DNA of 20,534 nt from Nostoc sp. 'Peltigera membranacea cyanobiont' 232 (GTDB lineage: Bacteria > Cyanobacteriota > Cyanobacteriia > Cyanobacteriales > Nostocaceae): positions 1 to 20,534 of the forward strand of contig NZ_NOLK01000147.1 in assembly GCF_002245985.1 (NCBI RefSeq). The letters are read 5' to 3'. Positions 3,991-19,179 of this stretch are shown one piece after another. Under the pieces are notes generated by a model. That model did not search any database and was not told the DNA's origin. It saw only the letters and a program-made list of their open reading frames with translations. Position numbers and translations under genes: made by a program. Each line of letters starts with the position of its first letter. Within the stretch, counting starts at the first letter, position 1.

Positions 3991-6801
3991 ATGGTGCAAG
4001 CCAAACGCAGAGCAAATACTGCCAACACTATAGGGCTACTGATTCCGACCCTGCTGCAAGGTGAGGTTGAAGGATGGCGAAATACGGGCTGGGCTGGTGT
4101 TACACAGACTACATCAGAACTTTTGAGCTACTGGTTTGAAGAGGACAGAGACGGGCCACAGTTCCATCAATGCCAGCAGCGGGCGATTGAAACTATCATC
4201 TACTGCCATGAAATTTTAGGGATTGAAAACCCTTACCAGCTGTATGAGAATTTTGCTCCTGAAAGTCCTACAGTTCAAGCGGTTACTCGCTCAAAGGCTT
4301 TGCAGGATGAACTAAACCCGATTAGCTTCCCCAAATACTGCTTAAAAATGGCAACGGGTAGCGGTAAAACTTGGGTGTTAAATGCGCTCATAGTATGGCA
4401 CTACTTCAATGCTCTAAACGATGAGCGTCCTGGTTTATTTACCAGCCGTTTTTTGATTGTCACTCCTGGACGGGAAGTACAGAAGCGAATTTTAGTGTCT
4501 CTTGAATTTGACCTAAGCCAGCCGTTGTTTGTACCCCCTGGTACGCGATGGCGCGATCGCTTTTACTATGAGCTATATACCCCCGATGACTTTCGAGAAA
4601 ATCTTACTCTCACTGATGGCGCGTTTTTAATGGTGACAAACTGGCAGCAGTTCCGGTTTGCGAAGGATAAACCGTCACTGTGGGAAGAATTTATGGGGGA
4701 ACGTGAGTAAATTCCCAAAGCAGAAATTATTGCAGACTTGCTGACTGAATATCCTGATATCTGCGTTCTTAATGACGAGGCTCATCACGTCCACGCTACC
4801 AAACGACCCAATTCTGAAACAGGAAAAGATGAGGAGCTAATCTGGCGGCGGTTTATGACTTTCTTAAAGCAATGCCAACAAGAGCGTCATGAGTCAGCAC
4901 CATACCGAGTTTTTCAGCAGATTGATTTTTCAGCAACTCCCTTTTATGGCAGTGGAGACAATAAAGACTACTTCCCTCATATTGTCTATGACTACGATTT
5001 ACCCCAAGCTTCAACAGATATGCTGGTTAAGCAGCTATTCTTGGAACAGCGCCAGGGGGCTAACTTAGCTGATTTGGACTTTAGGGCAGAACGCACACCA
5101 GCTATAGGGAGAAAGCGGGGTGAAATTATTGGCTTGTCCCGTGGTCAGAAAATCATGCTGGAGATTGGCAAATCCAAACTAGAGCAGCTGACACAGGAAT
5201 TTAAAGTTAATGGGATTAACCGCAAGCCTGTAATGCTGGTATTAGCTGAGGAAACAGATGTTGCTGACCTTGTGGGTGAACACTTCGCCGCCTTGCCTGA
5301 TGAAGATGGCAACTACTACGACAGTGAGCGCGTGGTGGTTTACCATTCCAACTTAAAAGACGCTGATTATAAGACTGCTGAGGTAAAGCTAGAAGACATC
5401 GACAACGGCAATAAACCCCTGCGGGTGGTAGTGTCGGTGCTATCAGTTCGAGAAGGTTTTGACCGTCATAACATTTGTGTAATTGTCATGCTCCGAGCCA
5501 GTGAAGCTGACCTACTCCTGGAGCAAGTTGTTGGGCGTGGTCTACGGGTGATGTTCCCAGATTACAAACCTGAGTATGACCAGATTCAAGACCTAAAGAA
5601 AGAAGCACGGCAGCAACTTCTCAACCGGGAACAGCCCAGCAACGCTTTTGATTGTTTGTTCCTGGTGGAACACCCCAAGTTTAAGGACTTTTACGAGAAC
5701 TACTTGCGATCGCAGGGTTACACTGTTGGCTCAGGTGACAGTTCGGGACAAAAGGCCGCGGGTGATTTAGTTGTAGTAGATGCTGATACTTTACGAATTC
5801 CCAAGTATGACATTTGCTGGCCTATACAAATTTTTGACAATACCCCTATCCCTAACTTAGCTGATATTGAAGTGAATTCTTTGGGGCATTACCCAGTCAA
5901 GTTTTCATTACAAAAACAGATGTCAGCTAAGACGTTGATAACTGATGTTCACGTTGAGACAGAAACGAAGGCTAAGACTTGGGTACTAGAAAACGATTAC
6001 TTTGACTACAACTTTTTCTTACAGCAAATAGCTAGGACGGTTACACAGTCAGGTAAGATGATGCACCTAACCGCCTTCAGTTCTGAGATTGCCGCTTTAG
6101 CAGATGAATATGTCAGCCGTTGGCTATTCACCGAAGACATTGATTTCACTGACCCTGAGAACTATATAGTTCTTCAAAGTCAGCAGATAGTTGATTTTAT
6201 CGTTAAACAAATCCGTTCTGCGATCGCACGGGCGACAGGTGACTTGCAATATCAGCCTGGGGCAGTGTGGCGCAAACTGTCTGATGTCTCTCGGCTATTG
6301 ATGCGACAGTCAAACATGGTAGCTGTACAGCGCTGCATTTATCCTTATCAGGCTGTGCAGACGGTTAAGGGGGGGTTTGAGCGGCGGATTATCAGCAAAC
6401 TGCTGAATCCATCACCGGAAGTTTTAGCATTTGCCAAGCTAGACCGGAAGCACGATTTGATTATTGCGTGGCGAGATGACCGAGGAATTCAGCGCAAGTA
6501 TGAGCCAGATTTTGTTGTTAAAACTGCTGACCGGATATTTTTGTTTGAGACAAAGGGCGACCACCTTATAGGCGACCCCAGCACAGCTTTGAAGGCTCAG
6601 GCTGCTGTTGCTTGGTGTAAGGCTGCTTCTACAGTAACTCCGCCGGGATCGCAGCCTCAAGAGTGGGAGTACATCATTCTCAAACAAAGTGTGTTTGAAA
6701 CACATGAAGGTGCTTCCTTTAATGCGCTACTGCCAATAATGCGAATGGAACGAGAGGCGCTGATTGCTGGGCTTTATGGTGAATTAGGTTTGAATATTTA
6801 G
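3991..6801 (+). pseudogene. res: Type III-like restriction enzyme Res subunit (SF2 helicase plus C-terminal PD-(D/E)xK nuclease), interrupted by an in-frame TAA at 4708..4710
   Basis: ORFs 3991..4710 and 4738..6801 are in the same frame. Walker A (ATGSGKT, ~4354..4371) lies in the first ORF. The DEAH box (NDEAHH, 4774..4785) lies in the second. The codons between them read through as IPKAEIIADL. The nuclease motif is YEPDFVV...FLFETKG at ~6499..6558. The combined length of ~936 aa is typical of Res. Confidence 0.8.
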
Positions 6802-6809
6802 GAGGAATT

Positions 6810-6992
6810 ATGAGTGAACTAACAAGAGGCAGACGCAAAGATTCAGTAAAAATGATGTGGGATACAAAGCCAAAACGCGCTCCCAATCCCAGAGATATTG
6901 AGTTCCAAACTGCTGAAATTGTAATTCCTAATCCTCAACAGGATCAGGGTAATATTCCTTTATTTGTAACTCCAGAGTACGGAAGTAGCTAA
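6810..6992 (+). CDS. 60-codon ORF that looks like the original N-terminus of the mod methyltransferase; in frame with 7023..8912 and separated from it by TAATAA
   Basis: A strong SD (AGGAGG at 6801..6806) begins inside the res stop codon TAG (6799..6801). KMMWDTKPKRAPNPRDIEFQTAE resembles the L-x-W-x-x-K N-terminal leader seen ahead of the GDNL motif in Type III Mod proteins. 6810 and 7023 are in the same frame. Confidence 0.5.
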   Translation: MSELTRGRRKDSVKMMWDTKPKRAPNPRDIEFQTAEIVIPNPQQDQGNIPLFVTPEYGSS

Positions 6993-7022
6993 TAAATAAA
7001 ATCTAGACTAAATGAATATATT

Positions 7023-8912
7023 ATGATATTTGATGAGATGAATAAGTTCAAAGCAAATCGTTTAATCTGGGGCGATAACTTACTTGCAATGCAGGCACTT
7101 TTGTCTCAGGGCTATGCTGGTCAAATTGATTTAATTTATATTGATCCACCATTTAATAGTGATGCTGATTACTCTTACGAAATGACTATAGAGGGTCAGC
7201 AAGTTGAAAAAGAAGCTAGCATAATTGAGCGACTAGCATACACTGATACATGGGAAACAGGTATAGATTCATACTTGGATATGATGTATCCACGCTTGCA
7301 GTTGATGAAAAGATTATTGAGTGACTCTGGAAGTATATATGTGCATTGTGATTGGCGAGTAAACAGTCATTTAAGAATTCTTCTTGAAGAAGTTTTTGGC
7401 ACTAGAAATTTTGTCAACGAAATTATTTGGAAGCGTCGTGGTGGTGCGCTTAATAACTCTAAAAGTTATGGTGCTGTAACTGACACAATATTCTTATTTA
7501 AGAAATCTGATAATTTTATATTTTATCCACTTAAATCAAAAGCATCAGAAGAAGTTAAGGAATATATCAAACAGAGATTTGTTTATGATGATGGTGATGG
7601 AAGGCTTTACAGTCGTGACCCAGTTACTAATCCTTCATCTACTCCAAGCTCAAGTTTAATTTATGAATACAAAGGATATAAACCGCCTGCTAAAGGTTGG
7701 GCATTTTCAATGGAAACTATGGAAGAATGGGATAGTAAAGGAAAATTATATTTTCCTTCTAACAAATCACAAAGAATTAGAAGAAAGACTTTTTTAGATG
7801 AGTACGAAGGGCAGCCTATTCAAAATTTATGGAATGATATTTATGTAATTAATTCTCAGGCAAATGAATATCTTGGCTATCCTACCCAAAAACCAGAAGC
7901 TCTTCTAGAACGTATCATCCAAACTTCATCCAATGAAAATTCTCTAGTCGCTGATTTCTTCTGCGGCAGTGGCACAACAATGGCAGTAGCAGAAAAACTC
8001 AACCGTCGCTGGATTGGTTGCAACCTTGACAAAGTAGGTATCCAAGTTTCTCGTAATCGCTTAGTTAATCAGGGCGCTAAACCCTTCTTACTAGAAAACA
8101 TAGGCAACTACCAGCGCCACATGATTTATCTATCTGGTAGCAAAATCAATGAAATGCAGCGAATTATCCTTAAGCTATACGGAGCAGCACCCAGAAGCGA
8201 TCGCCCCGACCTTGGAAGCCACACCCCCGACGGGCAAGAACCTGAATTGGTGTATGTAGGCTATCCAGACAGACCTGTGACTGCCAAAAAAGTAATCGAA
8301 CTGGCTCAAGAGGCTGAAATTCTCGACGGTACAGGCTACAAAACGCTAGTAGTATTGGCCTGGGATTATGACTACAATTTCAACACCGAACTAGAGAACC
8401 GAAAAGCGGCGTTGAGAACCCCGCTCAAGGTTAACATCAAGCCCCTGACCATTCCCCCAGAAATCTACAACTATCTTAGGAAGGCTAAGAATGAAGACGA
8501 GTTAGATAGTCTACGGGACAAAATTACATTCCATGAAAAGCCTTATCTAAAAGTTAGCAAGCCAGAAGTGAGCAATGCTGGCGATGGCAAAGTAGTCATT
8601 ACTCTGAAGATTGACCGCTATGTGTTGATGAACTATCCCATTCCAGAAGCAGAACAGGTGGAACTTCGTAAGGTTATTAAGGACAACTTTGCTGCGCTCA
8701 TCGACTACTGGGCGATTGATTGGGATTACGACGGTAAAACCTTCCGCTCTACTTGGCAGGCTATTCGAGGTAATGGGAAACAGGCATCAACTGTAGTAAC
8801 TATGGCTGCAAGCCCAGAACTGCCGAGCGGGAAACGTGCGATCGCAGTTCGTCTGGTCGATGTCTTCGGCAATGATGCCAGTGCAACGGTAGAGGTCTGG
8901 AGTTTAGACTAA
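7023..8912 (+). CDS. mod: Beta-class N6-adenine/N4-cytosine DNA methyltransferase (Type III Mod-like, 629 aa) with a long C-terminal extension
   Basis: NRLIWGDNLLAMQ is followed by motif IV (IYIDPPF, 7143..7154), then YPTQKPEALLERII, then motif I (FFCGSGTT, 7956..7979). The order IV-TRD-I defines the beta class. There is no SD before the 7023 ATG. Confidence 0.85.
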   Translation: MIFDEMNKFKANRLIWGDNLLAMQALLSQGYAGQIDLIYIDPPFNSDADYSYEMTIEGQQVEKEASIIERLAYTDTWETGIDSYLDMMYPRLQLMKRLLSDSGSIYVHCDWRVNSHLRILLEEVFGTRNFVNEIIWKRRGGALNNSKSYGAVTDTIFLFKKSDNFIFYPLKSKASEEVKEYIKQRFVYDDGDGRLYSRDPVTNPSSTPSSSLIYEYKGYKPPAKGWAFSMETMEEWDSKGKLYFPSNKSQRIRRKTFLDEYEGQPIQNLWNDIYVINSQANEYLGYPTQKPEALLERIIQTSSNENSLVADFFCGSGTTMAVAEKLNRRWIGCNLDKVGIQVSRNRLVNQGAKPFLLENIGNYQRHMIYLSGSKINEMQRIILKLYGAAPRSDRPDLGSHTPDGQEPELVYVGYPDRPVTAKKVIELAQEAEILDGTGYKTLVVLAWDYDYNFNTELENRKAALRTPLKVNIKPLTIPPEIYNYLRKAKNEDELDSLRDKITFHEKPYLKVSKPEVSNAGDGKVVITLKIDRYVLMNYPIPEAEQVELRKVIKDNFAALIDYWAIDWDYDGKTFRSTWQAIRGNGKQASTVVTMAASPELPSGKRAIAVRLVDVFGNDASATVEVWSLD

Positions 8913-9995: not shown

Positions 9996-10760
9996 ATGAT
10001 TTATAAAACAACCATCGATCCTTTAAAGACTATGCCAGACTTCAGTAATGAACCGATACCTGAATTAAAAAATCCGAAAGAAATCTTTCATTCTGGTGAC
10101 TTGACCTTGAGAATTGAAGGAGAAGTAGTACCTGTAGTAGATGTCCATCTAGGGCAACAGCAATCGATTTACTTTGAGCATCATATTTTACTGTGGAAAC
10201 ATCCGAATGTTCGCCTTGGTGTCAAAGGTTTAAAAGGGGCAGCCAAGCGTTTCTTTGCCGGACTGCAAATTTTTATCAGTGAAGCACATGGGCCAGGGAA
10301 TATTGCTTTCTCTCGTGAGGCACCTGGACAGATTGTGGTGCTGCAATTAGAGCGTGGACAGACAGTGGACGTGCGCGAACATCAGTTTTTACTCGCTACC
10401 AGTAATATTGAGTACAGTTTCTTTTTCCAGCGAGGGCTGGCAAACCTCTTTTTTAGCCGTAGTGGTGGTTTATTTATTGACCGCTTCATTGGTCAACAAC
10501 AGGGAGGGCTGCTTTTAATCCACGGTTACGGTAATGTCTTTGAAAAGTACCTTGCTCCTGGGGAAGTACTCGATGTTGAGCCAGGAGCATGGTTGTGGAA
10601 AGACTCATCAGTGAAGATGGAGACAGTAACGGCGCTGCAATCTAGTGGCGGTATCTTGGGCGCAATTGGAGTAATGCTTGGCGGTATTTCATTCACTCTT
10701 AACCGTTTTATTGGCCCTGGTCGAATGGCACTAAGAAAAGCTGAAACACTTGTGGTTTAA
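9996..10760 (+). CDS. AIM24 / TIGR00266 (DUF124) family protein (254 aa)
   Basis: It has the repeated beta-rich signature of this family: GPGNIAFSREAPGQIVVLQLERGQTVDV, LAPGEVLDVEPGAWLWKDSSVKME and NRFIGPGRMAL. Confidence 0.75.
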   Translation: MIYKTTIDPLKTMPDFSNEPIPELKNPKEIFHSGDLTLRIEGEVVPVVDVHLGQQQSIYFEHHILLWKHPNVRLGVKGLKGAAKRFFAGLQIFISEAHGPGNIAFSREAPGQIVVLQLERGQTVDVREHQFLLATSNIEYSFFFQRGLANLFFSRSGGLFIDRFIGQQQGGLLLIHGYGNVFEKYLAPGEVLDVEPGAWLWKDSSVKMETVTALQSSGGILGAIGVMLGGISFTLNRFIGPGRMALRKAETLVV

Positions 10761-11231: not shown

Positions 11232-11504
11232 TTAGATTGCACTGCGACGATTTAGCAAGTTCCACAAGAAAACAGCGACAATTGCGCCAAGAACCGCTAC
11301 TGCAATACCGGGAATGCTCAAAGTGGGGGCGGCTAACGTCAAGGTTCCTGTACTGAAGAATACACCGAGACTACCACCAACAAAAGCACCGATAATTCCT
11401 AATAAGATTGTTGCTAAGATTCCGCCGCCTTGATGACCGGGGTAGATAGCCTTAGCGATCGCACCAGCAATTAGACCTAAAACAATCCAAGCAAGAATAT
11501 TCAT
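11232..11504 (-). CDS. GlsB/YeaQ/YmgE family stress-response membrane protein (transglycosylase-associated, 90 aa)
   Basis: MNILAWIVLGLIAGAIAKAIYPG...GGILATILLGIIGAFVGGSLG is the characteristic glycine-rich three-TM pattern of this family. Confidence 0.85.
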   Translation of the reverse strand: MNILAWIVLGLIAGAIAKAIYPGHQGGGILATILLGIIGAFVGGSLGVFFSTGTLTLAAPTLSIPGIAVAVLGAIVAVFLWNLLNRRSAI

Positions 11505-11939: not shown

Positions 11940-12092
11940 TCAGTCAACATTCTGCTTAAACTCCATTTGGGCGAAGTGGTCTTGCAGTAGTTTGTGGATG
12001 AAGCGGTAGCGACCACCAACACGCTGAAAAATTAGGCGAACGGTGCAGTAATTGAGGAAACGGGCGTAGTTCCAGGGATGTAGCCTGCCCAT
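11940..12092 (-). pseudogene. Relic C-terminal fragment (50 codons) resembling the winged-helix tail of cyanobacterial STAND/NACHT-type NTPases
   Basis: My own translation gives MGRLHPWNYARFLNYCTVRLIFQRVGGRYRFIHKLLQDHFAQMEFKQNVD*. F-x-H-x-x-x-Q-[DE]-[HY]-F-A resembles the NACHT winged-helix motif. The frame is closed by a TGA one codon upstream of the ATG, so this is a stub. It was not in the supplied ORF track (<60 aa). Confidence 0.4.
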
Positions 12093-12312: not shown

Positions 12313-12771
12313 ATGGTAGAACCTCTAACGGCAGCAGTGATTGTATCCTTGTTTTTCTCTGAAGCAGTCAAGGAAGGAGGAAAAACGTTAGGTAAAGGTG
12401 TGACCGATACATTTACTCAATTGGTAAACACCATCCGTGAAAAATTTAAAGCAGAGGGAACAGAAGGGCTGCTGACTCGCGCACAAAATCAACCTACAGA
12501 AGTGAATAAGACAAAGCTACAAGATGAACTGCAAACCCAAATCGATGCTGATGAAGCGTTTGCTCAGAAACTGAAGGAATTAGTCGTGAAGCTACAAGCA
12601 CAAGATGAAAGAATACGTCAGGTAGTTCTGAGTGAGATTGAAGTAAGTGGCGATTTAAAAGCACAAGATATCAGCCAAAAAGCCACGCGCGATGGTTCAG
12701 TTGAGCAAGAAATGCTAAAAGGGATCAAAGCTACAAACATTGATTTGGGCAATTTAAACCAAGAAGCTTAA
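12313..12771 (+). CDS. Small all-helical protein (~153 aa from ATG 12313; the ORF track starts at TTG 12259) with a hydrophobic N-terminal helix and a C-terminal motif shared with the downstream NTPase. Candidate executioner/effector partner (Bell/HeLo-like by architecture only).
   Basis: MVEPLTAAVIVSLFFSEAV is followed by a charged coiled-coil-like body. The tail reads RQVVLSEIEVSGDLKAQDISQ...TNIDLGNLNQEA. The stop at 12769..12771 is 4 nt before the ATG of the next gene. Confidence 0.6.
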   Translation: MVEPLTAAVIVSLFFSEAVKEGGKTLGKGVTDTFTQLVNTIREKFKAEGTEGLLTRAQNQPTEVNKTKLQDELQTQIDADEAFAQKLKELVVKLQAQDERIRQVVLSEIEVSGDLKAQDISQKATRDGSVEQEMLKGIKATNIDLGNLNQEA

Positions 12772-12775
12772 AAGC

Positions 12776-15700
12776 ATGACTAACCATCCAGATTTTCAAG
12801 TTGTACAAAGAATTTTGGAGAATGTTTGGGCTGGTCGTGACATCACAATAGGAGATATTCATCAGATTTATCAAATTGTTATCAATTTGAATAATATTCC
12901 TAAACCAACAGGTTTTCCGCAAAATATTCCTGACAGTAGCACAGATAAGTTTGTCGGACGTGCGCGGCAATTAGAACGCCTCCACCACCAGTTACAACGC
13001 AATCATGAAGTAGTAATTGCTGCTGTTGAAGGTATGGGGGGAGTTGGTAAAACAGAATTAGCAATCCAGTATTCACTGTTACATTTGCAGTCGCATAATT
13101 ACCCTGGTGGGATCTGCTGGCTACGAGCAAGAGAAGAAGACATTGGATTGCAAATCGTACAATTTGCAAGAACAGATTTAGGTTTGCAACCCCCAGATGA
13201 TCTGGAATTACTAGAACGAGTTCGTTGGTGCTGGAAGCATTGGCATCAGGAAAATACTCTTCTAGTTCTGGATGATGTAAAGAATTACAGCGATATAAAA
13301 CCCTACCTACCACCACAACCATCTCAATTTAAAGTCCTAATTACAACCAGATTAAAACTAGATTTAGCTGATTCTCTGTTTTTGTCAGTTTTGCAAGAGT
13401 CAGATGCACTATTATTACTAGCTCAATTGATTGGAGAAGAAAAGAAAAACCAAGAATTGGAAAAAGCTCAAGAACTTTGTCAACGTTTAGGATACTTGCC
13501 CCTAGCATTGCAACTAGTTGGGCGATATGTCAAAAAGCGCCGGATATCTTTAACAGAATTACTACGACGTTTAGAGTCAAAAGGGCTGGGTCATCCTTCT
13601 TTAATAGTGAATGAAAATGACCCCACTTGGACTTTAAATATCAAACGAGGAGTAGCGGCTGCTTTTGAGTTGAGTTGGTCAGAATTAAGTGACGATGCTC
13701 AACAGTTAGGTTGTTTACTAAGTTTATTTGCTTTGGCTTCGATTCCTTGGTCACTGGTGGAACGTGCTGCTGTTGAGCAAGACTTTGAAAAATTAGAAGA
13801 TACCAGAGTTGAACTAGAAAACTTGCACTTGTTACAGGGTGAAGAAATTTATCAATTACATCAGCTAATTCGTGAATTTCTGAGAGACAAGCAAAACGAC
13901 TTAGCTACTACGTCTGAGCAGAAGTATAATTTCTGTCAAGTAATGATAGAACTGGCACAGGAAATTCCTGATTCGCCAACTCAAGAATTTATTAGTTCAG
14001 TCAAAGACGCTATTCCTCATTTGGCAGAGGTAGCACAAAATCTGATTGATGCAGTCAATGGTGAAAATTTAATTTGGCCCTTTGTTGGCTTAGATAGATT
14101 TTATTCGGGACAGGGTTTATATGCGCTTGCATTACCTTGGTTAGAGCAATGTTTATCAGTTGCTAGAGAACGCTTAGGAGAAGAGCATCCCGATGTTGCC
14201 CAAAGTTACAACAATCTGGCAGAACTCTACCGTAACCAAGGACGGTACACCGAAGCCGAACCACTGTATCAAAAAGCTTTAGAACTAAGGCAACGGCTGC
14301 TGGGAGAAAACCATCCGCTTGTCGCCGAAAGCTACAACAATCTGGCAGTACTCTACGATTCCCAAGGAAAATACACCGAAGCCGAACCACTGTATCAAAA
14401 AGCTTTAGAACTTTGGCAACGGCTACTGGGAGAAGACCATCCGCTTGTCGCCACCAGTTACAACAATCTGGCAGTACTCTACTGTAACCAAGGACGGTAC
14501 ACCGAAGCAGAACCTCTGTGTAAAAAAGCTTTGGAACTAAGGCAACGACTGCTAGGAAAAGACAATCTGGATGTCGCCTACAGTTATAACAATCTGGCTT
14601 TTCTCTACTTTTTCCAAGGACGGTACACAGAGGCGGAACCTCTGTTTCAAAAAGCTTTAGAACTTTGGCAATCGCTGCTAGGAGAAGACCATCCGAATGT
14701 CGCCACCAGTTACGACAATCTGGCAGTACTCTACCGTAACCAAGGACGGTACACCGAAGCCGAACCACTGTATCAAAAAGCTTTGGAAATAAGGCAACGG
14801 CTTCTGGGAGAAGAACATCTCAATATCGCCCAAAGTTACGACAATCTAGCAGTACTCTACCAAAACCAAGGACGGTACACCGAAGCCGAATCTCTGCATC
14901 AAAAAGCTTTGGAACTAAGGCAACGGTTTCTGGGAAAAAACCATCCGCTTGTCGCCACCAGTTACAACAATCTAGCTTTTTTCTACGAATCCCAAGGACG
15001 GTACACAGAAGCGGAACTTCTGTATCAAAAAGCATTAGAACTCAGGCAAGGGCTTCTGGGAGAAGAACATCCCGATGTCGCCAGCAGTTACAATAATCTG
15101 GCATCACTCTACCGTAACCAAGGACGGTACACTGAAGCCGAATCTCTGTGTAAAAAAACATTAGAACTAAGGCAAGGGTTTCTGGGAGAAGACCATCCGC
15201 ATGTCGCCCAAAGTTACGACAATCTGGCAGTACTCTACTGTAACCAAGGACGGTACACCGAAGCCGAACCTCTGCATCAAAAAGCATTAGAACTAAGGCA
15301 AGGGTTTCTGGGAGAAGAACATCCCGATGTCGCCAGCAGTTACAACAATCTGGCATCACTCTACCATAACCAAGGACGGTACACGGAAGCCGAACCTTTG
15401 TTTCAAAAAGCTTTGGAACTAAGGCAACGGCTGCTGAGAGAAGACCATCCGCTTGTCGCCACCAGTTACAACAATCTGGCAGTACTCTACCGTAACCAAG
15501 GACGGTATACGGAAGCCGAACCTCTGCATCAAAAAGCTTTGGAACTAAGGCAACGGCTTCTGGGAGAAGAACATCCCGATGTCGCCGACTGTTACAACAA
15601 TCTGGCAGAACTCTACCGTAACCAAGGACGGTACACGGAAGCAGAACCTCTGCATCAAAAAGCTTTAGAACTAAGGCAACGGCTGCTGGGAGAAGAACAT

Positions 15701-15883
15701 CCCGATGTCGCCACCAGTTACAACAACCTGGCTTTACTCTATCGTTCCCAAGGACGGTACAGCGAAGCGGAACCACTGTATCAAAAAGCTTTGGCAATTA
15801 CTGAACTTAGGTTGGGGGTAGATCATCCCAGTACAGCCACTATCTGTGAAAATCTGAAATCCTTGCGCGATAATTATGCTTAA
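12776..15883 (+). CDS. STAND NTPase: short N-terminal motif region + NB-ARC domain + 13-14 TPR repeats (1035 aa)
   Basis: The P-loop is GMGGVGKTELA (13031..13054) and Walker B is LLVLDDV. Thirteen near-identical 42-aa TPR units follow (…HPxVAxSYNNLAxLYxxQGRYTEAEPLxQKALELRQRLLGE…). The ORF is uninterrupted over 3.1 kb. Confidence 0.9.
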   Translation: MTNHPDFQVVQRILENVWAGRDITIGDIHQIYQIVINLNNIPKPTGFPQNIPDSSTDKFVGRARQLERLHHQLQRNHEVVIAAVEGMGGVGKTELAIQYSLLHLQSHNYPGGICWLRAREEDIGLQIVQFARTDLGLQPPDDLELLERVRWCWKHWHQENTLLVLDDVKNYSDIKPYLPPQPSQFKVLITTRLKLDLADSLFLSVLQESDALLLLAQLIGEEKKNQELEKAQELCQRLGYLPLALQLVGRYVKKRRISLTELLRRLESKGLGHPSLIVNENDPTWTLNIKRGVAAAFELSWSELSDDAQQLGCLLSLFALASIPWSLVERAAVEQDFEKLEDTRVELENLHLLQGEEIYQLHQLIREFLRDKQNDLATTSEQKYNFCQVMIELAQEIPDSPTQEFISSVKDAIPHLAEVAQNLIDAVNGENLIWPFVGLDRFYSGQGLYALALPWLEQCLSVARERLGEEHPDVAQSYNNLAELYRNQGRYTEAEPLYQKALELRQRLLGENHPLVAESYNNLAVLYDSQGKYTEAEPLYQKALELWQRLLGEDHPLVATSYNNLAVLYCNQGRYTEAEPLCKKALELRQRLLGKDNLDVAYSYNNLAFLYFFQGRYTEAEPLFQKALELWQSLLGEDHPNVATSYDNLAVLYRNQGRYTEAEPLYQKALEIRQRLLGEEHLNIAQSYDNLAVLYQNQGRYTEAESLHQKALELRQRFLGKNHPLVATSYNNLAFFYESQGRYTEAELLYQKALELRQGLLGEEHPDVASSYNNLASLYRNQGRYTEAESLCKKTLELRQGFLGEDHPHVAQSYDNLAVLYCNQGRYTEAEPLHQKALELRQGFLGEEHPDVASSYNNLASLYHNQGRYTEAEPLFQKALELRQRLLREDHPLVATSYNNLAVLYRNQGRYTEAEPLHQKALELRQRLLGEEHPDVADCYNNLAELYRNQGRYTEAEPLHQKALELRQRLLGEEHPDVATSYNNLALLYRSQGRYSEAEPLYQKALAITELRLGVDHPSTATICENLKSLRDNYA
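14160..15830 (+). repeat. Tandem 126-bp coding repeats (TPR units) with very high unit-to-unit nucleotide identity
   Basis: Strings such as ccaaggacggtacaccgaagccgaacc...tatcaaaaagctttagaactaaggcaacggctgctgggagaaga recur every 126 bp. Confidence 0.9.
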
Positions 15884-16935: not shown

Positions 16936-17147
16936 CTTGTAATTAATTTAGCTTTACATTACTGAGATACAAAGACCGTGTAAAAGTGGTCAATTGATAG
17001 CTATAAATGTATTTTTGTAATTAATTACATTTGTATTAATACTCTTTTGTGCATTTGTAAATTTGTAATTTAGGGATTAAGCTTGGTATTGTTACTTTCT
17101 GGAATTTGTCATCACCTAATGAATTACATTTTTACAAAAACACATTT
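16936..17147. promoter_or_regulatory. AT-rich iteron/operator region upstream of parA (candidate centromere-like site and par promoter)
   Basis: There is a perfect 14-bp palindrome TGTAATTAATTACA at 17016..17029. Related TTGTAA(A/T)TT and TTACATT units occur at ~16938, 16955, 17055, 17065 and 17122. Confidence 0.5.
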
Positions 17148-17798
17148 ATGAAAATTGCAGTTTTGAACCAGAAGGGGGGCAGTGGCAAGACCACAGTATC
17201 TATCCATTTGGCTCATGCTTTTTCGATGAGAGGGTATCGAGTATTACTTGTTGATACTGACCCTCAAGGCTCAACCCGTGACTGGGCAGCAGCACGTAAT
17301 GGTGAGGCTCCATTTAGCGTTATTGGTTTGGATCGTCCTATCTTGCATAAAGAATTGCCCAAACTAGCGCAGGGGTATGATTTTGTTTTCATTGATGGTG
17401 CGCCAAGAGTTTCTGACTTAACCAGATCAGCAATCATGGCAGTGGATTTTGTGCTGGTTCCTGTACAACCATCTCCTTTGGATGTGTGGGCAGTGCATGA
17501 GGTAGTAGAACTGGTACAAGAGGCCACTATATATAAGCCAGACCTAACAGCAGCATTTTTAATCAACAGAAAGATAGTGAACACTGCTCTTGGGCGAGAA
17601 GTAACTGAAGTTTTAGGAGAATACCCCTTTCCAGTGTTAAAAGCACAGATAAGTCAAAGGGTAGCATTTGCTGAGTGTTTAAACATTGGTAGTACTGTTT
17701 TGGAAGCTGCCCCGAAAAGTGCTGCCAGTGATGAAGTACGAGCAGTTGTTGAGGAGATATTAGCGGCGAAGGAGGAAACCAATCATGGCAGAAGTTAA
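17148..17798 (+). CDS. parA: ParA-family partition ATPase (deviant Walker A, small type Ib form, ~216 aa from ATG 17148)
   Basis: MKIAVLNQKGGSGKTT, LLVDTDPQGS and FIDGAP are present. The TTG at 17106 in the ORF track is probably not the start. Confidence 0.9.
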   Translation: MKIAVLNQKGGSGKTTVSIHLAHAFSMRGYRVLLVDTDPQGSTRDWAAARNGEAPFSVIGLDRPILHKELPKLAQGYDFVFIDGAPRVSDLTRSAIMAVDFVLVPVQPSPLDVWAVHEVVELVQEATIYKPDLTAAFLINRKIVNTALGREVTEVLGEYPFPVLKAQISQRVAFAECLNIGSTVLEAAPKSAASDEVRAVVEEILAAKEETNHGRS

Positions 17799-18162: not shown

Positions 18163-19179
18163 ATGAGTGATTTAACGGTTAATGATGGTTCATATCAGCA
18201 GTTGTTAGATCGCATTGGTGAGTGTTTGGCGTTGGGGCGACAACGGGCTTTTGAGCAGGTTAATTCAGTTTTAGTAGAAACTTACTGGCAGATTGGGCGT
18301 TATATTGTCGAGTTTGAGCAAGCGGGCAAGGAACGGGCAGAATATGGCAGTAAGTTGTTACAGGTGCTTTCACGAGATTTGAAAGCGTTGTATGGTAAGG
18401 GGTTTAGCCGTTCTAATTTGCAGTATATGCGTCTGTTTTATTTGAACTATGAGAATTGCCAAACACTGTCTGGCAAATTGAGTTGGTCGCACTATACGGA
18501 GCTTTTAGCTATTTCGGATGATTTGGCGCGGTCATTTTATGAGCAGCAGTGCATCCAAGATCGCTGGAGTGTGCGGGAGTTGAAACGCCAGAAGGATTCG
18601 GCTTTGTTTGAGCGGGTGGCGTTGAGTAAGGAACGGGCGGAGATTTTGGCACTGGCTAAGGATGGGCAACGGTTCGAGTCGGCGCGGGATGTGGTCAAAG
18701 ATCCTTATGTGTTCGAGTTTTTGGATTTACCAGACCGCAATTATCGTGAGAGTGAGTTAGAAAATCGTTTAATTGCTGAGTTGGAGAAGTTTCTACTTGA
18801 GTTGGGCAAGGGGTTTGCATTTATTGGGCAGCAATACCGAATTACGTTAAACAACACGCATTTTTTTGTGGATTTGGTGTTTTATCATCGCATTCTCAAG
18901 TGTTTTGTCTTAATCGATCTGAAGACGCAAGCGGTAAGTCATCAGGATATTGGACAGATGAATATGTATCTAAATTATTTTCGCGCTGAGGAGAATATGG
19001 AGGATGACAACGAGCCAATAGGGATTGTGTTGGCGCGAGATAAGGATGAGATTTTGGTTGAGTATGCGACGGGTGGTATTTCTAATCAGCTTTTTGTGTC
19101 AAGATATCAACTTTATTTGCCAGATCCGGAGGTTTTAAAGCAGGAGTTAAGGCGGCTTTTGGAGGTAAATGATGGGTGA
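18163..19179 (+). CDS. DUF1016 / YhcG-family PD-(D/E)xK nuclease domain protein (338 aa)
   Basis: The N-terminal helical region is YWQIGRYIVEFEQ...YGSKLL. The C-terminal nuclease core is FVDLVFYHRILKCFVLIDLKTQAVSHQDIGQMNMYLNYF. Confidence 0.85.
   Translation: MSDLTVNDGSYQQLLDRIGECLALGRQRAFEQVNSVLVETYWQIGRYIVEFEQAGKERAEYGSKLLQVLSRDLKALYGKGFSRSNLQYMRLFYLNYENCQTLSGKLSWSHYTELLAISDDLARSFYEQQCIQDRWSVRELKRQKDSALFERVALSKERAEILALAKDGQRFESARDVVKDPYVFEFLDLPDRNYRESELENRLIAELEKFLLELGKGFAFIGQQYRITLNNTHFFVDLVFYHRILKCFVLIDLKTQAVSHQDIGQMNMYLNYFRAEENMEDDNEPIGIVLARDKDEILVEYATGGISNQLFVSRYQLYLPDPEVLKQELRRLLEVNDG

Follow-up and report, generated by a model that had tools for sequence, protein, structure and literature searches.

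Within a 20,534-nucleotide stretch of DNA from strain 232 of the cyanobacterium Nostoc sp. 'Peltigera membranacea cyanobiont' (assembly GCF_002245985.1, contig NZ_NOLK01000147.1, positions 1 to 20,534 of the forward strand, hereafter the window), two adjacent genes encode a small helical effector and a large sensor of the NOD-like receptor (NLR) type, composed of an NB-ARC domain and a TPR array. Our analysis indicates that these genes are probably a Bell-domain/BASS4-NLR amyloid-signalling pair, in which a short motif at the N-terminus of the sensor would template its counterpart at the C-terminus of the effector. The original prediction, made from the sequence of the window, had proposed just such an NLR and effector signalling through a shared amyloid-type motif. 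That proposal is supported, as this exact gene pair is already known and has been published as a Bell/NLR pair of class bass_04 (Dyrka et al., 2020; bioRxiv 10.1101/2020.01.06.895854).

The effector gene (12313..12771, + strand) runs from an ATG at 12313 to a TAA at 12769-12771 and encodes 152 aa rather than the roughly 153 aa first estimated. Its product is an exact match to OYE01065.1 / WP_094345679.1. A spacer of 4 nt (aagc, 12772..12775, +), as originally described, separates it from the 1035-aa gene of the NLR-like NB-ARC/TPR sensor (12776..15883, +), which is listed as OYE01066.1 by Dyrka et al. (2020; Supplementary Table 2). The two genes probably form one operon, and a spacing of 3-4 nt between effector and partner also occurs in 23 related loci. 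Scans for promoters and terminators gave sites that were not above shuffled sequence and are uninformative for the operon call.

The look-up of the effector as OYE01065.1 leads directly to the published catalogue. Supplementary Table 2 lists OYE01065.1/OYE01066.1 as a colinear pair from the same strain in class bass_04 / cya_02, with a Bell-side motif at residues 125-151 of OYE01065.1 ('TRDGSVEQEMLKGIKAT-NIDLGNLNQE') and an NLR-side motif at residues 9-30 of OYE01066.1 ('VVQRILENVWAGRDITIGDIHQ'), and an lcs value of 7 (Dyrka et al., 2020). These residue numbers fit the translation from the window exactly, and the motif coordinates that we derived independently agree with them. The distance column of the table gives 6 where we count 4 nt, and the published metric is evidently defined differently. 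The placement of OYE01065.1 in the Bell-side column identifies it as a Bell homologue by the authors' own HMMER search, which was seeded with Saccharothrix ONI86675.1 (Dyrka et al., 2020). Because the pair is listed as bass_04, the motif that the original prediction left unnamed is BASS4. The sensor also matches our own profile of partner N-termini with an E-value of 1.6e-12, and this profile includes the sequence of Scytonema sp. NIES-4073 (locus L017), which is itself listed in bass_04. It has been remarked that the Bell side often carries BASS4 in more than one copy, an arrangement also found in HET-s.

Such a repetition is present here. The effector tail carries two full copies of the motif, each of 21-22 aa: pseudo-repeat R1 at residues 101-122 (12613..12678, +; IRQVVLSEIEVSGDLKAQDISQ) and pseudo-repeat R2 at residues 130-150 (12700..12762, +; VEQEMLKGIKATNIDLGNLNQ, that is VEQEMLKGIKAT-NIDLGNLNQ). 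R2 is the stretch that the published table sets against the NLR motif. The repeats are joined by the linker KATRDGS (12679..12699, +), which was delimited by alignment and has a predicted local distance difference test (pLDDT) score below 50. The sensor carries a single copy at residues 9-30 (12800..12865, +; VVQRILENVWAGRDITIGDIHQ). All three copies follow the pattern h-x-Q-x-h-h-x-x-h-x-h-x-G-[DN]-h-x-h-G-[DN]-h-x-Q. The tail and N-terminal sequences quoted in the original prediction are exact, and the core that it picked out, NIDLGNLNQ in the effector and DITIGDIHQ in the sensor, is in register at motif positions 14-22. Other parts of its alignment need correction. The QVV said to open both segments is three residues out of register, as the family alignment pairs effector Q103 with sensor Q11 and not with Q8; Q11 is nearly invariant among homologues and Q8 is variable, and the QVV offset lies outside the six best ungapped offsets. 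The looser match IEVSGDLKAQ is likewise out of register, the in-register counterpart in the first repeat being DLKAQDISQ.

The evidence for a shared motif is strongest at the level of the family. From species-representative genomes we assembled a set of 44 related loci and, for each effector, took the gene that lies downstream of it. For most of the intact effectors, the next protein, often beginning 3-4 nt on, has an N-terminus of the form ~xxQxIFENVxAxGNITVGNITQ. A profile was built from partner N-termini only, iterated to 34 sequences with no effector included, and searched against 2336 stop-to-stop open reading frame (ORF) segments of >=50 aa from the window and the loci. Partners ranked first and effectors next, with one partner fragment interspersed among them, and the profile met the effector tails at two sites in one consistent register, in this effector as well as in others. 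With a narrow hidden Markov model, for which near-identical NB-ARC partners were used, effectors came up only at E ~3. In profile-profile local alignment of 33 partners against the effector family, the best match was R2, with a score of 29.2 and an alignment ending at residue 150, followed by R1 at 26.6 (residues 101-122, ungapped; 26.4-26.6 as an ungapped partner-profile match), while the best score within the helical domain was 9.3. Both repeats exceed all of 2000 column shuffles (mean 11.9, standard deviation 2.0, maximum 22.9). At the family level, a motif of the expected length (~20-25 aa) is therefore shared between the C-terminus of the effector and the N-terminus of the NLR.

The sensor has the composition of an NLR-type partner, being an adjacent gene on the same strand with NB-ARC and TPR regions. 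The motif is followed by a conserved linker, IYQIVINLNNIPKPTGFPQNIPDSSTDKFVGR (12866..12961, +), that is kept in homologues whatever N-terminal module precedes it, and then by the NB-ARC NTPase domain (12965..13546, +; Pfam residues 64-257, E 4.8e-17) with the Walker A sequence GMGGVGKT. The original prediction placed the start of this domain about 35 residues into the protein; the actual start is at ~62-63, with the motif at residues 9-30 and the conserved linker IPKPTGFPQNIP..FVGR between them. The TPR array (14177..15792, +) is encoded by a 126-bp tandem repeat of 12.8 copies with 83% matches, and Pfam finds 14 TPR_10/TPR_12 repeats in the 1035-aa protein (E ~1e-214). In an AlphaFold2 model of residues 1-330, made from a 32-sequence alignment, residues 1-36 have a pLDDT below 50 and are followed by a confident NB-ARC fold, with values of 81-95 at residues 91-190. 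The idea that the segment ahead of the NTPase domain is free rather than part of a globular domain is borne out by this low pLDDT outside the NB-ARC fold and by the exchange of the segment for other modules in homologues. As the effector tail (residues 110-152) also has a pLDDT below 50, the motifs of both proteins are predicted to lie outside folded domains, at flexible termini.

The sensor also matches the NCBIfam model NF040586 (FxSxx-COOH system TPR protein) with 491 bits against a cut-off of 300. This match spans residues 57-670, covering the generic NB-ARC and TPR body only and leaving the N-terminal motif outside, and we read it as a likely sign of shared architecture, not of a shared system. 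The TPR array also contains two long antisense ORFs, of 201 and 251 aa (14163-14768 and 15042-15797, - strand). Because their translations are repetitive, they most likely arise as a side effect of the 126-bp tandem repeat and are not genes.

The effector, in turn, resembles the Bell side of such pairs, for which the expected form is a protein of ~120-150 aa whose N-terminal ~100 aa make up an all-alpha domain. Its AlphaFold2 model, built with a 24-sequence alignment, contains helices at residues 7-14, 17-20, 28-48, 51-59, 63-79, 81-97 and 99-108, with a pLDDT of 87-92 at residues 31-90. A protein of 152 aa with helices over residues 7-108 is small and all-alpha in this sense, and we assign residues ~1-108 (12313..12636, +) to the Bell domain. 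The hydrophobic N-terminal helix followed by a helical body that the original prediction had described is visible in this model. The protein opens with a 'MEPIS'-like motif and hydrophobic helix, MVEPLTAAVIVSLFFSEA (12313..12366, +), seen both in the alignment and in predicted helices 7-14 and 17-20, and presumed to be membrane-inserting. Bell, Hell and Bab domains are defined by a hydrophobic N-terminal helix of the 'MEPIS' type in which position 2 or 3 is acidic, and MVEPLTAAVIVSLFFSEA with its nearly invariant E3 is of this type. Residues E3, L5, T6, A8, I10, S12, F15, S16, E17 and A18 are invariant or nearly so in the effector alignment, and remote homologues begin MEP[IV]T or MEPAT.

Homologues of the effector (n=204) come nearly all from Nostocales or other filamentous cyanobacteria, and the Nostoc host is itself one of the multicellular or filamentous prokaryotes in which Bell/BASS-NLR pairs are expected. 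When 1.84 billion representative proteins were scanned in full with HMMER, 258 relatives emerged, some of which keep the helical domain and have a different C-terminal tail or are fused to other regions; this is what one would expect if Bell domains are joined to a variety of signalling motifs. P0127, P0128, P0205, P0211 and P0227 join the Bell-type helical domain to a long, unrelated C-terminal region, which in P0127 and P0128 has ~45-aa '…GYPL…LGL.DDD…IE.P' repeats; in P0205, a BASS4-like segment is followed by another domain. The small protein does not fall into an unrelated family with a defined function, an outcome that the original prediction had named as fatal to its proposal: searches of Pfam, PADLOC and NCBIfam gave no family above threshold. 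A sub-threshold match to RBFA (E 0.005, 17.5 bits against a cut-off of 34.7) was rejected as noise, as were sub-threshold matches to PMI_typeI_hel and to a Type I specificity subunit. The automatic names attached to effector homologues ('Fis family regulator', 'ribosome-binding factor A' and 'phosphate transport auxiliary subunit') are inconsistent and were likewise set aside.

What the analysis shows is the layout and domains of the two genes, their match to the published entry, the conservation of the motif across the family on both partners, its modular use and its predicted place outside folded domains. The mechanism that we propose for the pair takes its analogy from BASS1 and BASS3 (prion behaviour, fibrils and seeding from NLR to Bell), from Bab/Agp (BASS11) and from HET-S/NWD2; it is from these systems that we infer amyloid formation, templating, membrane attack, toxicity and a biological role here. 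The TPR array would detect a trigger, likely phage infection or another non-self or danger cue. The NB-ARC domain would then oligomerise in an NTP-dependent manner, clustering the disordered N-terminal BASS4 motifs (residues 9-30), and the clustered copies would take on a cross-beta fold. This nucleus would template R1 (101-122) and R2 (130-150) in the disordered tail of the effector. R1 at its start overlaps the final helix predicted for the Bell domain (99-108), so that its conversion to beta structure would be expected to destabilise the helical bundle. This overlap suggests a trigger like that of HET-S, with the globular domain unfolding at its end on conversion to beta structure. The freed N-terminal helix MVEPLTAAVIVSLFFSEA could then insert in the membrane, so that the cell is killed or arrested.

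Several observations weigh against this account. Taken alone, the pair is indistinguishable from chance, with a local alignment score of 29 against 23.1 +/- 3.9 for shuffled sequences (p = 0.09), and p = 0.06 when only its motif segments are compared. For the single pair, the original prediction was therefore right to caution that the match is short and could be chance; it is the family that provides the support, as none of the 2000 shuffles reached the scores observed there. Identity to the NLR motif is low, at 6/22 positions for R1 (27%) and 7/21 for R2 (33%), against 43-56% in pairs for which cross-seeding is known; other pairs of the family reach 11/21 identities. When homologous operons were compared, as the original prediction had suggested, the motif was indeed kept at both termini, but covariation within pairs is weak: cognate and non-cognate combinations average 7.80 and 7.47 identities for R2, and 5.57 and 5.25 for R1, with a permutation p of ~0.002 that is uncorrected for shared ancestry. 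AlphaFold2 predicts short helices of low confidence in part of R1, at its start, and in residues 7-15 of the NLR. The effector is 65-100% identical across Nostocales, which is unusually high for a protein of a conflict system. A Foldseek search of the Bell model against the PDB gave a best E-value of 2.1, to coiled-coil and helical-hairpin proteins, and a profile search of PDB sequences with the effector returned nothing below E 0.17, with coiled-coil noise only. Finally, the literature that we searched yielded experiments on BASS1, BASS3 and BASS11 and none on BASS4.

Some of these points would also sit with a different kind of interaction, in which the motif serves both proteins as a homotypic peptide for docking or as an adaptor, with no amyloid templating. 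Pairing would then be by stoichiometric beta-strand augmentation or by helices, much as death-fold domains bring an effector to an activated NTPase. The low identity within the pair and the low-confidence helices in NLR residues 7-15 and at the start of R1 would be natural for such a peptide, and in NB-ARC homologues the same N-terminal position is occupied by the families PF19954, PF19959 and PF25000. We take PF19954 and PF19959 to be 'effector-associated domain' families. On the other side, the composition of the motif, with alternating hydrophobic residues, an invariant Q, G-[ND] turns and no proline, fits the amyloid class and a beta-arch rung. The presence on the effector of two tandem repeats of 21-22 aa, where the sensor has one copy, and the location of both motifs in regions predicted to be disordered, also speak for templating. 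Furthermore, prion and fibril formation has been observed for those BASS families that were tested in the same gene context, and in BASS1 and BASS3 the NLR-side motif converts the Bell-side motif. We consider docking of this kind unlikely, though it is the alternative that deserves the most attention.

It is also conceivable that the pair signals as proposed and that the effector acts as a regulator, scaffold or inhibitor rather than as a membrane-disrupting executioner. The effector is very strongly conserved and has no fold match to a known pore-forming domain, and four of its relatives (P0127, P0128, P0205 and P0211) fuse the helical domain to long unrelated C-terminal regions. The Foldseek comparison recommended in the original prediction found no match to a Bab, HeLo or MLKL fold, and because both the Foldseek and the PDB sequence searches came back empty, the link to Bab (9H9V), HeLo and MLKL rests on the N-terminal motif and the gene context, not on the fold. 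Bell folds are described as varying extensively in topology (bioRxiv 10.1101/2024.11.07.622273). The conserved M-x-E-P-h-T hydrophobic helix is the signature common to Bell, Hell and Bab; in Bab, the helix 1 mutation G11K abolishes abortive-infection activity (bioRxiv 10.1101/2024.11.07.622273), and in published AlphaFold models of BASS4-associated Bell domains four helices cup helix 1. A non-executioner role accordingly strikes us as improbable. That the termini resemble each other by chance and the small gene is an unrelated co-transcribed protein hardly merits belief: despite the marginal p of 0.06-0.09 for the pair alone, the weak RBFA match and the inconsistent names, it is refuted at the family level by profile matches at exactly two positions in the tail that exceed 2000/2000 shuffles, by recurrence of the motif on four partner architectures directly downstream of the effector, and by the absence of a curated family above threshold together with the place of the pair in the published BASS4 list.

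These partner architectures show how widely the motif is used. Directly downstream of the effector family, BASS4 heads four unrelated kinds of protein, among which NB-ARC/TPR is the majority form. In locus L009, the partner is a NACHT-like P-loop protein with a BASS4 head and a C-terminal membrane region. The partners in L022 (5528-), L036 and L037 have a BASS4-like head (for example QSILRNVQATVIIIGSVTQ), transmembrane (TM) helices and a C-terminal TPR array; they gave no match to NB-ARC or NACHT and an NCBIfam search of them was empty, and they are possibly a class of membrane-anchored sensors that shares the effector. In L030, L032, L035, L038 and L043, a 170-aa protein with an N-terminal BASS4 begins 3-4 nt after the effector, and in L038 (5460-5972) it is overlapped by a 428-aa membrane protein (5950-7236). 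Neither the 170-aa partners nor the 428-aa protein has an NB-ARC or NACHT domain, and no NCBIfam family was found for the 170-aa partners.

Among close homologues of the NB-ARC sensor, 44/120 carry BASS4. The remainder have other N/Y/G-rich motifs, the Pfam domains PF19954, PF19959 or PF25000, or nothing ahead of the same linker, which points to swapping of the N-terminal module. Homologues in which BASS4 is replaced ahead of a PKPTGFPQNIP..FVGR linker include P0298, P0299, P0303, P0307 and P0314, as well as P0349, P0362, P0385, P0389, P0383 and P0386; one example of a replacing N/Y-rich motif is NININQGNYxEYIxGNYIQGNY. The four partner architectures, this exchange among NB-ARC homologues and the low pLDDT of NLR residues 1-36 together argue that BASS4 is a free module. 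In the NLR N-termini of L013, L016, L017 and L039 and in P0274 and P0277, an extra G/N/Q-rich segment (…STLSGGMQAIQGDNNIQLQGNS…) lies upstream of BASS4 and may be a second amyloid-type motif. P0322 has two tandem BASS4-like copies on the NLR side.

Some genomes contain two or three paralogous Bell-BASS4 loci, as in Brasilonema angustatum (L007, L018 and L021) and Scytonema sp. HK-05 (L025 and L030), and Tolypothrix campylonemoides has two on one scaffold (L013 and L016). Because the effector tails of paralogous loci within one genome are nearly identical but the partner motifs differ, cross-talk between sensors through a shared effector pool is possible. Decayed copies, with truncated or frameshifted effectors and partner fragments, were seen among L031, L033, L039, L041, L044, L014 and L009 (710-886), and short ORF fragments of 78 aa in L014 and 59 aa in L009 keep the start of the BASS4 partner motif. 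The many decayed copies suggest rapid gain and loss of these cassettes.

A broader idea, which we put forward tentatively and think somewhat doubtful, is that the highly conserved Bell-BASS4 protein is a common executioner hub, its tail forming a two-rung, HET-s-like beta-solenoid that single-copy motifs at ~30% identity would template from NLR and non-NLR partners alike. If the partners that lack an NB-ARC or NACHT match are functional, amyloid signalling in bacteria would reach past STAND NTPases, and within one genome paralogous sensors could draw on a single effector pool.

The surroundings of the operon are compatible with a defence or mobile region, though the restriction-modification, ParA and YhcG neighbours prove nothing. 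An apparent type III restriction-modification system occupies 3991-8912 (+), comprising part of a ResIII helicase (3991-4710, +), an ORF of 687 aa that hits models of restriction endonucleases (4738-6801, +) and an N6_N4 DNA methylase (7023-8912, +), all identified by family match; the split of the res gene into two ORFs could be a frameshift or a pseudogene. Between this system and the Bell operon lies a gene for an AIM24-family protein (9996-10760, +; family match). Also present are a 90-aa glycine-rich membrane protein (11232-11504, -; NCBIfam PRK10457, 67 bits, below the cut-off of 129) and, just upstream of the Bell gene and divergent from it, a 50-aa ORF (…GGRYRFIHKLLQDHFAQM…, 11940-12092, -). 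The latter has 45% identity over 40 aa to the extreme C-terminus of the NACHT and TM BASS4 partner of L009 (pairwise E 2e-11) and, from this similarity, looks like what remains of the 3' end of a further sensor gene. A relic sensor end beside the Bell gene would suggest turnover of cassettes at this site. Downstream of the NLR are a ParA family partition ATPase (17106-17798, +; NF041546, E 1.1e-83) and a YhcG PDDEXK nuclease (DUF1016; 18163-19179, +; family match), which together hint that the 20.5-kb contig belongs to a plasmid or to a mobile region.

Amyloid templating from an NLR-type sensor to a membrane-targeting executioner links regulated cell death in bacteria, fungi and animals, and its antiphage role has been shown only recently, for Bab/Agp. 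The locus is a clean and intact cyanobacterial example and, since the pair is already in the BASS4 catalogue, not a new kind of system. With a HET-s-like two-repeat effector, 27-33% identity and several sensor architectures in its family, it is well suited to asking how much identity templating needs and whether non-NLR partners use the same executioner. The published screen took in NB-ARC and NACHT neighbours only (Dyrka et al., 2020).

Among characterized relatives, the Bell-NLR pairs with BASS3, or RHIM-like, motifs have the same gene-pair architecture, and one example, from Nostoc punctiforme, belongs to the same genus. Their motifs are confirmed as prion-forming with seeding from NLR to Bell; the pair described here is filed under bass_04 rather than the RHIM-related bass_03, and Pfam gave no match to RHIM in it. 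Bab/Agp (BASS11) from E. coli ECOR25 is comparable in having a small helical executioner with a conserved N-terminal hydrophobic helix and a C-terminal amyloid motif, next to a large TPR-containing sensor, Agp, which carries the same motif as its executioner at the N-terminus. That system mediates amyloid-dependent abortive infection with membrane relocalisation and is the only member of the class with a demonstrated antiphage function (bioRxiv 10.1101/2024.11.07.622273). The two systems differ as follows: Bab has 109 aa and a ~80-aa 'Babybell' domain, against 152 aa for the Nostoc effector; Agp is organized as TPR-GreA/B-C-PIN, against NB-ARC/TPR; and the motif families are BASS11 and BASS4, respectively. 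The Babybell structure 9H9V is absent among the 50 Foldseek matches listed, and the effector profile found no PDB sequence match to it at E up to 10. The Nostoc pair is thus not a member of the Bab/Agp group.

A parallel in logic is HET-S/NWD2 of Podospora anserina, with its HRAM motif, in which an NLR with a single N-terminal copy likewise stands beside a helical membrane-targeting effector. HET-S also has two ~21-aa C-terminal pseudo-repeats separated by a short loop, and the globular domain ends where the first of them starts or overlaps it; the Nostoc repeat linker has 7 residues, and HRAM loops of 6-15 have been published. Unlike HET-S, the Nostoc motif has a different sequence, the host is a bacterium and the genes stand in an operon, and neither the HeLo nor the HET-s prion domain (PF14479, PF11558) matched the pair in Pfam at E up to 0.1. 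The pair would work like HET-S/NWD2 and is not a member of that system. It is the same object as one of the BASS4 pairs of Dyrka et al. (2020), with identical accession, strain, motif coordinates and colinear adjacency, and it stands at the weak end of that class (lcs value of 7 in the table; 27-33% identity). To the published description, our analysis adds that both tail repeats, R1 and R2, match the profile of partner N-termini, that there is weak covariation within pairs, and that the same effector family also occurs beside partners without an NB-ARC or NACHT match.

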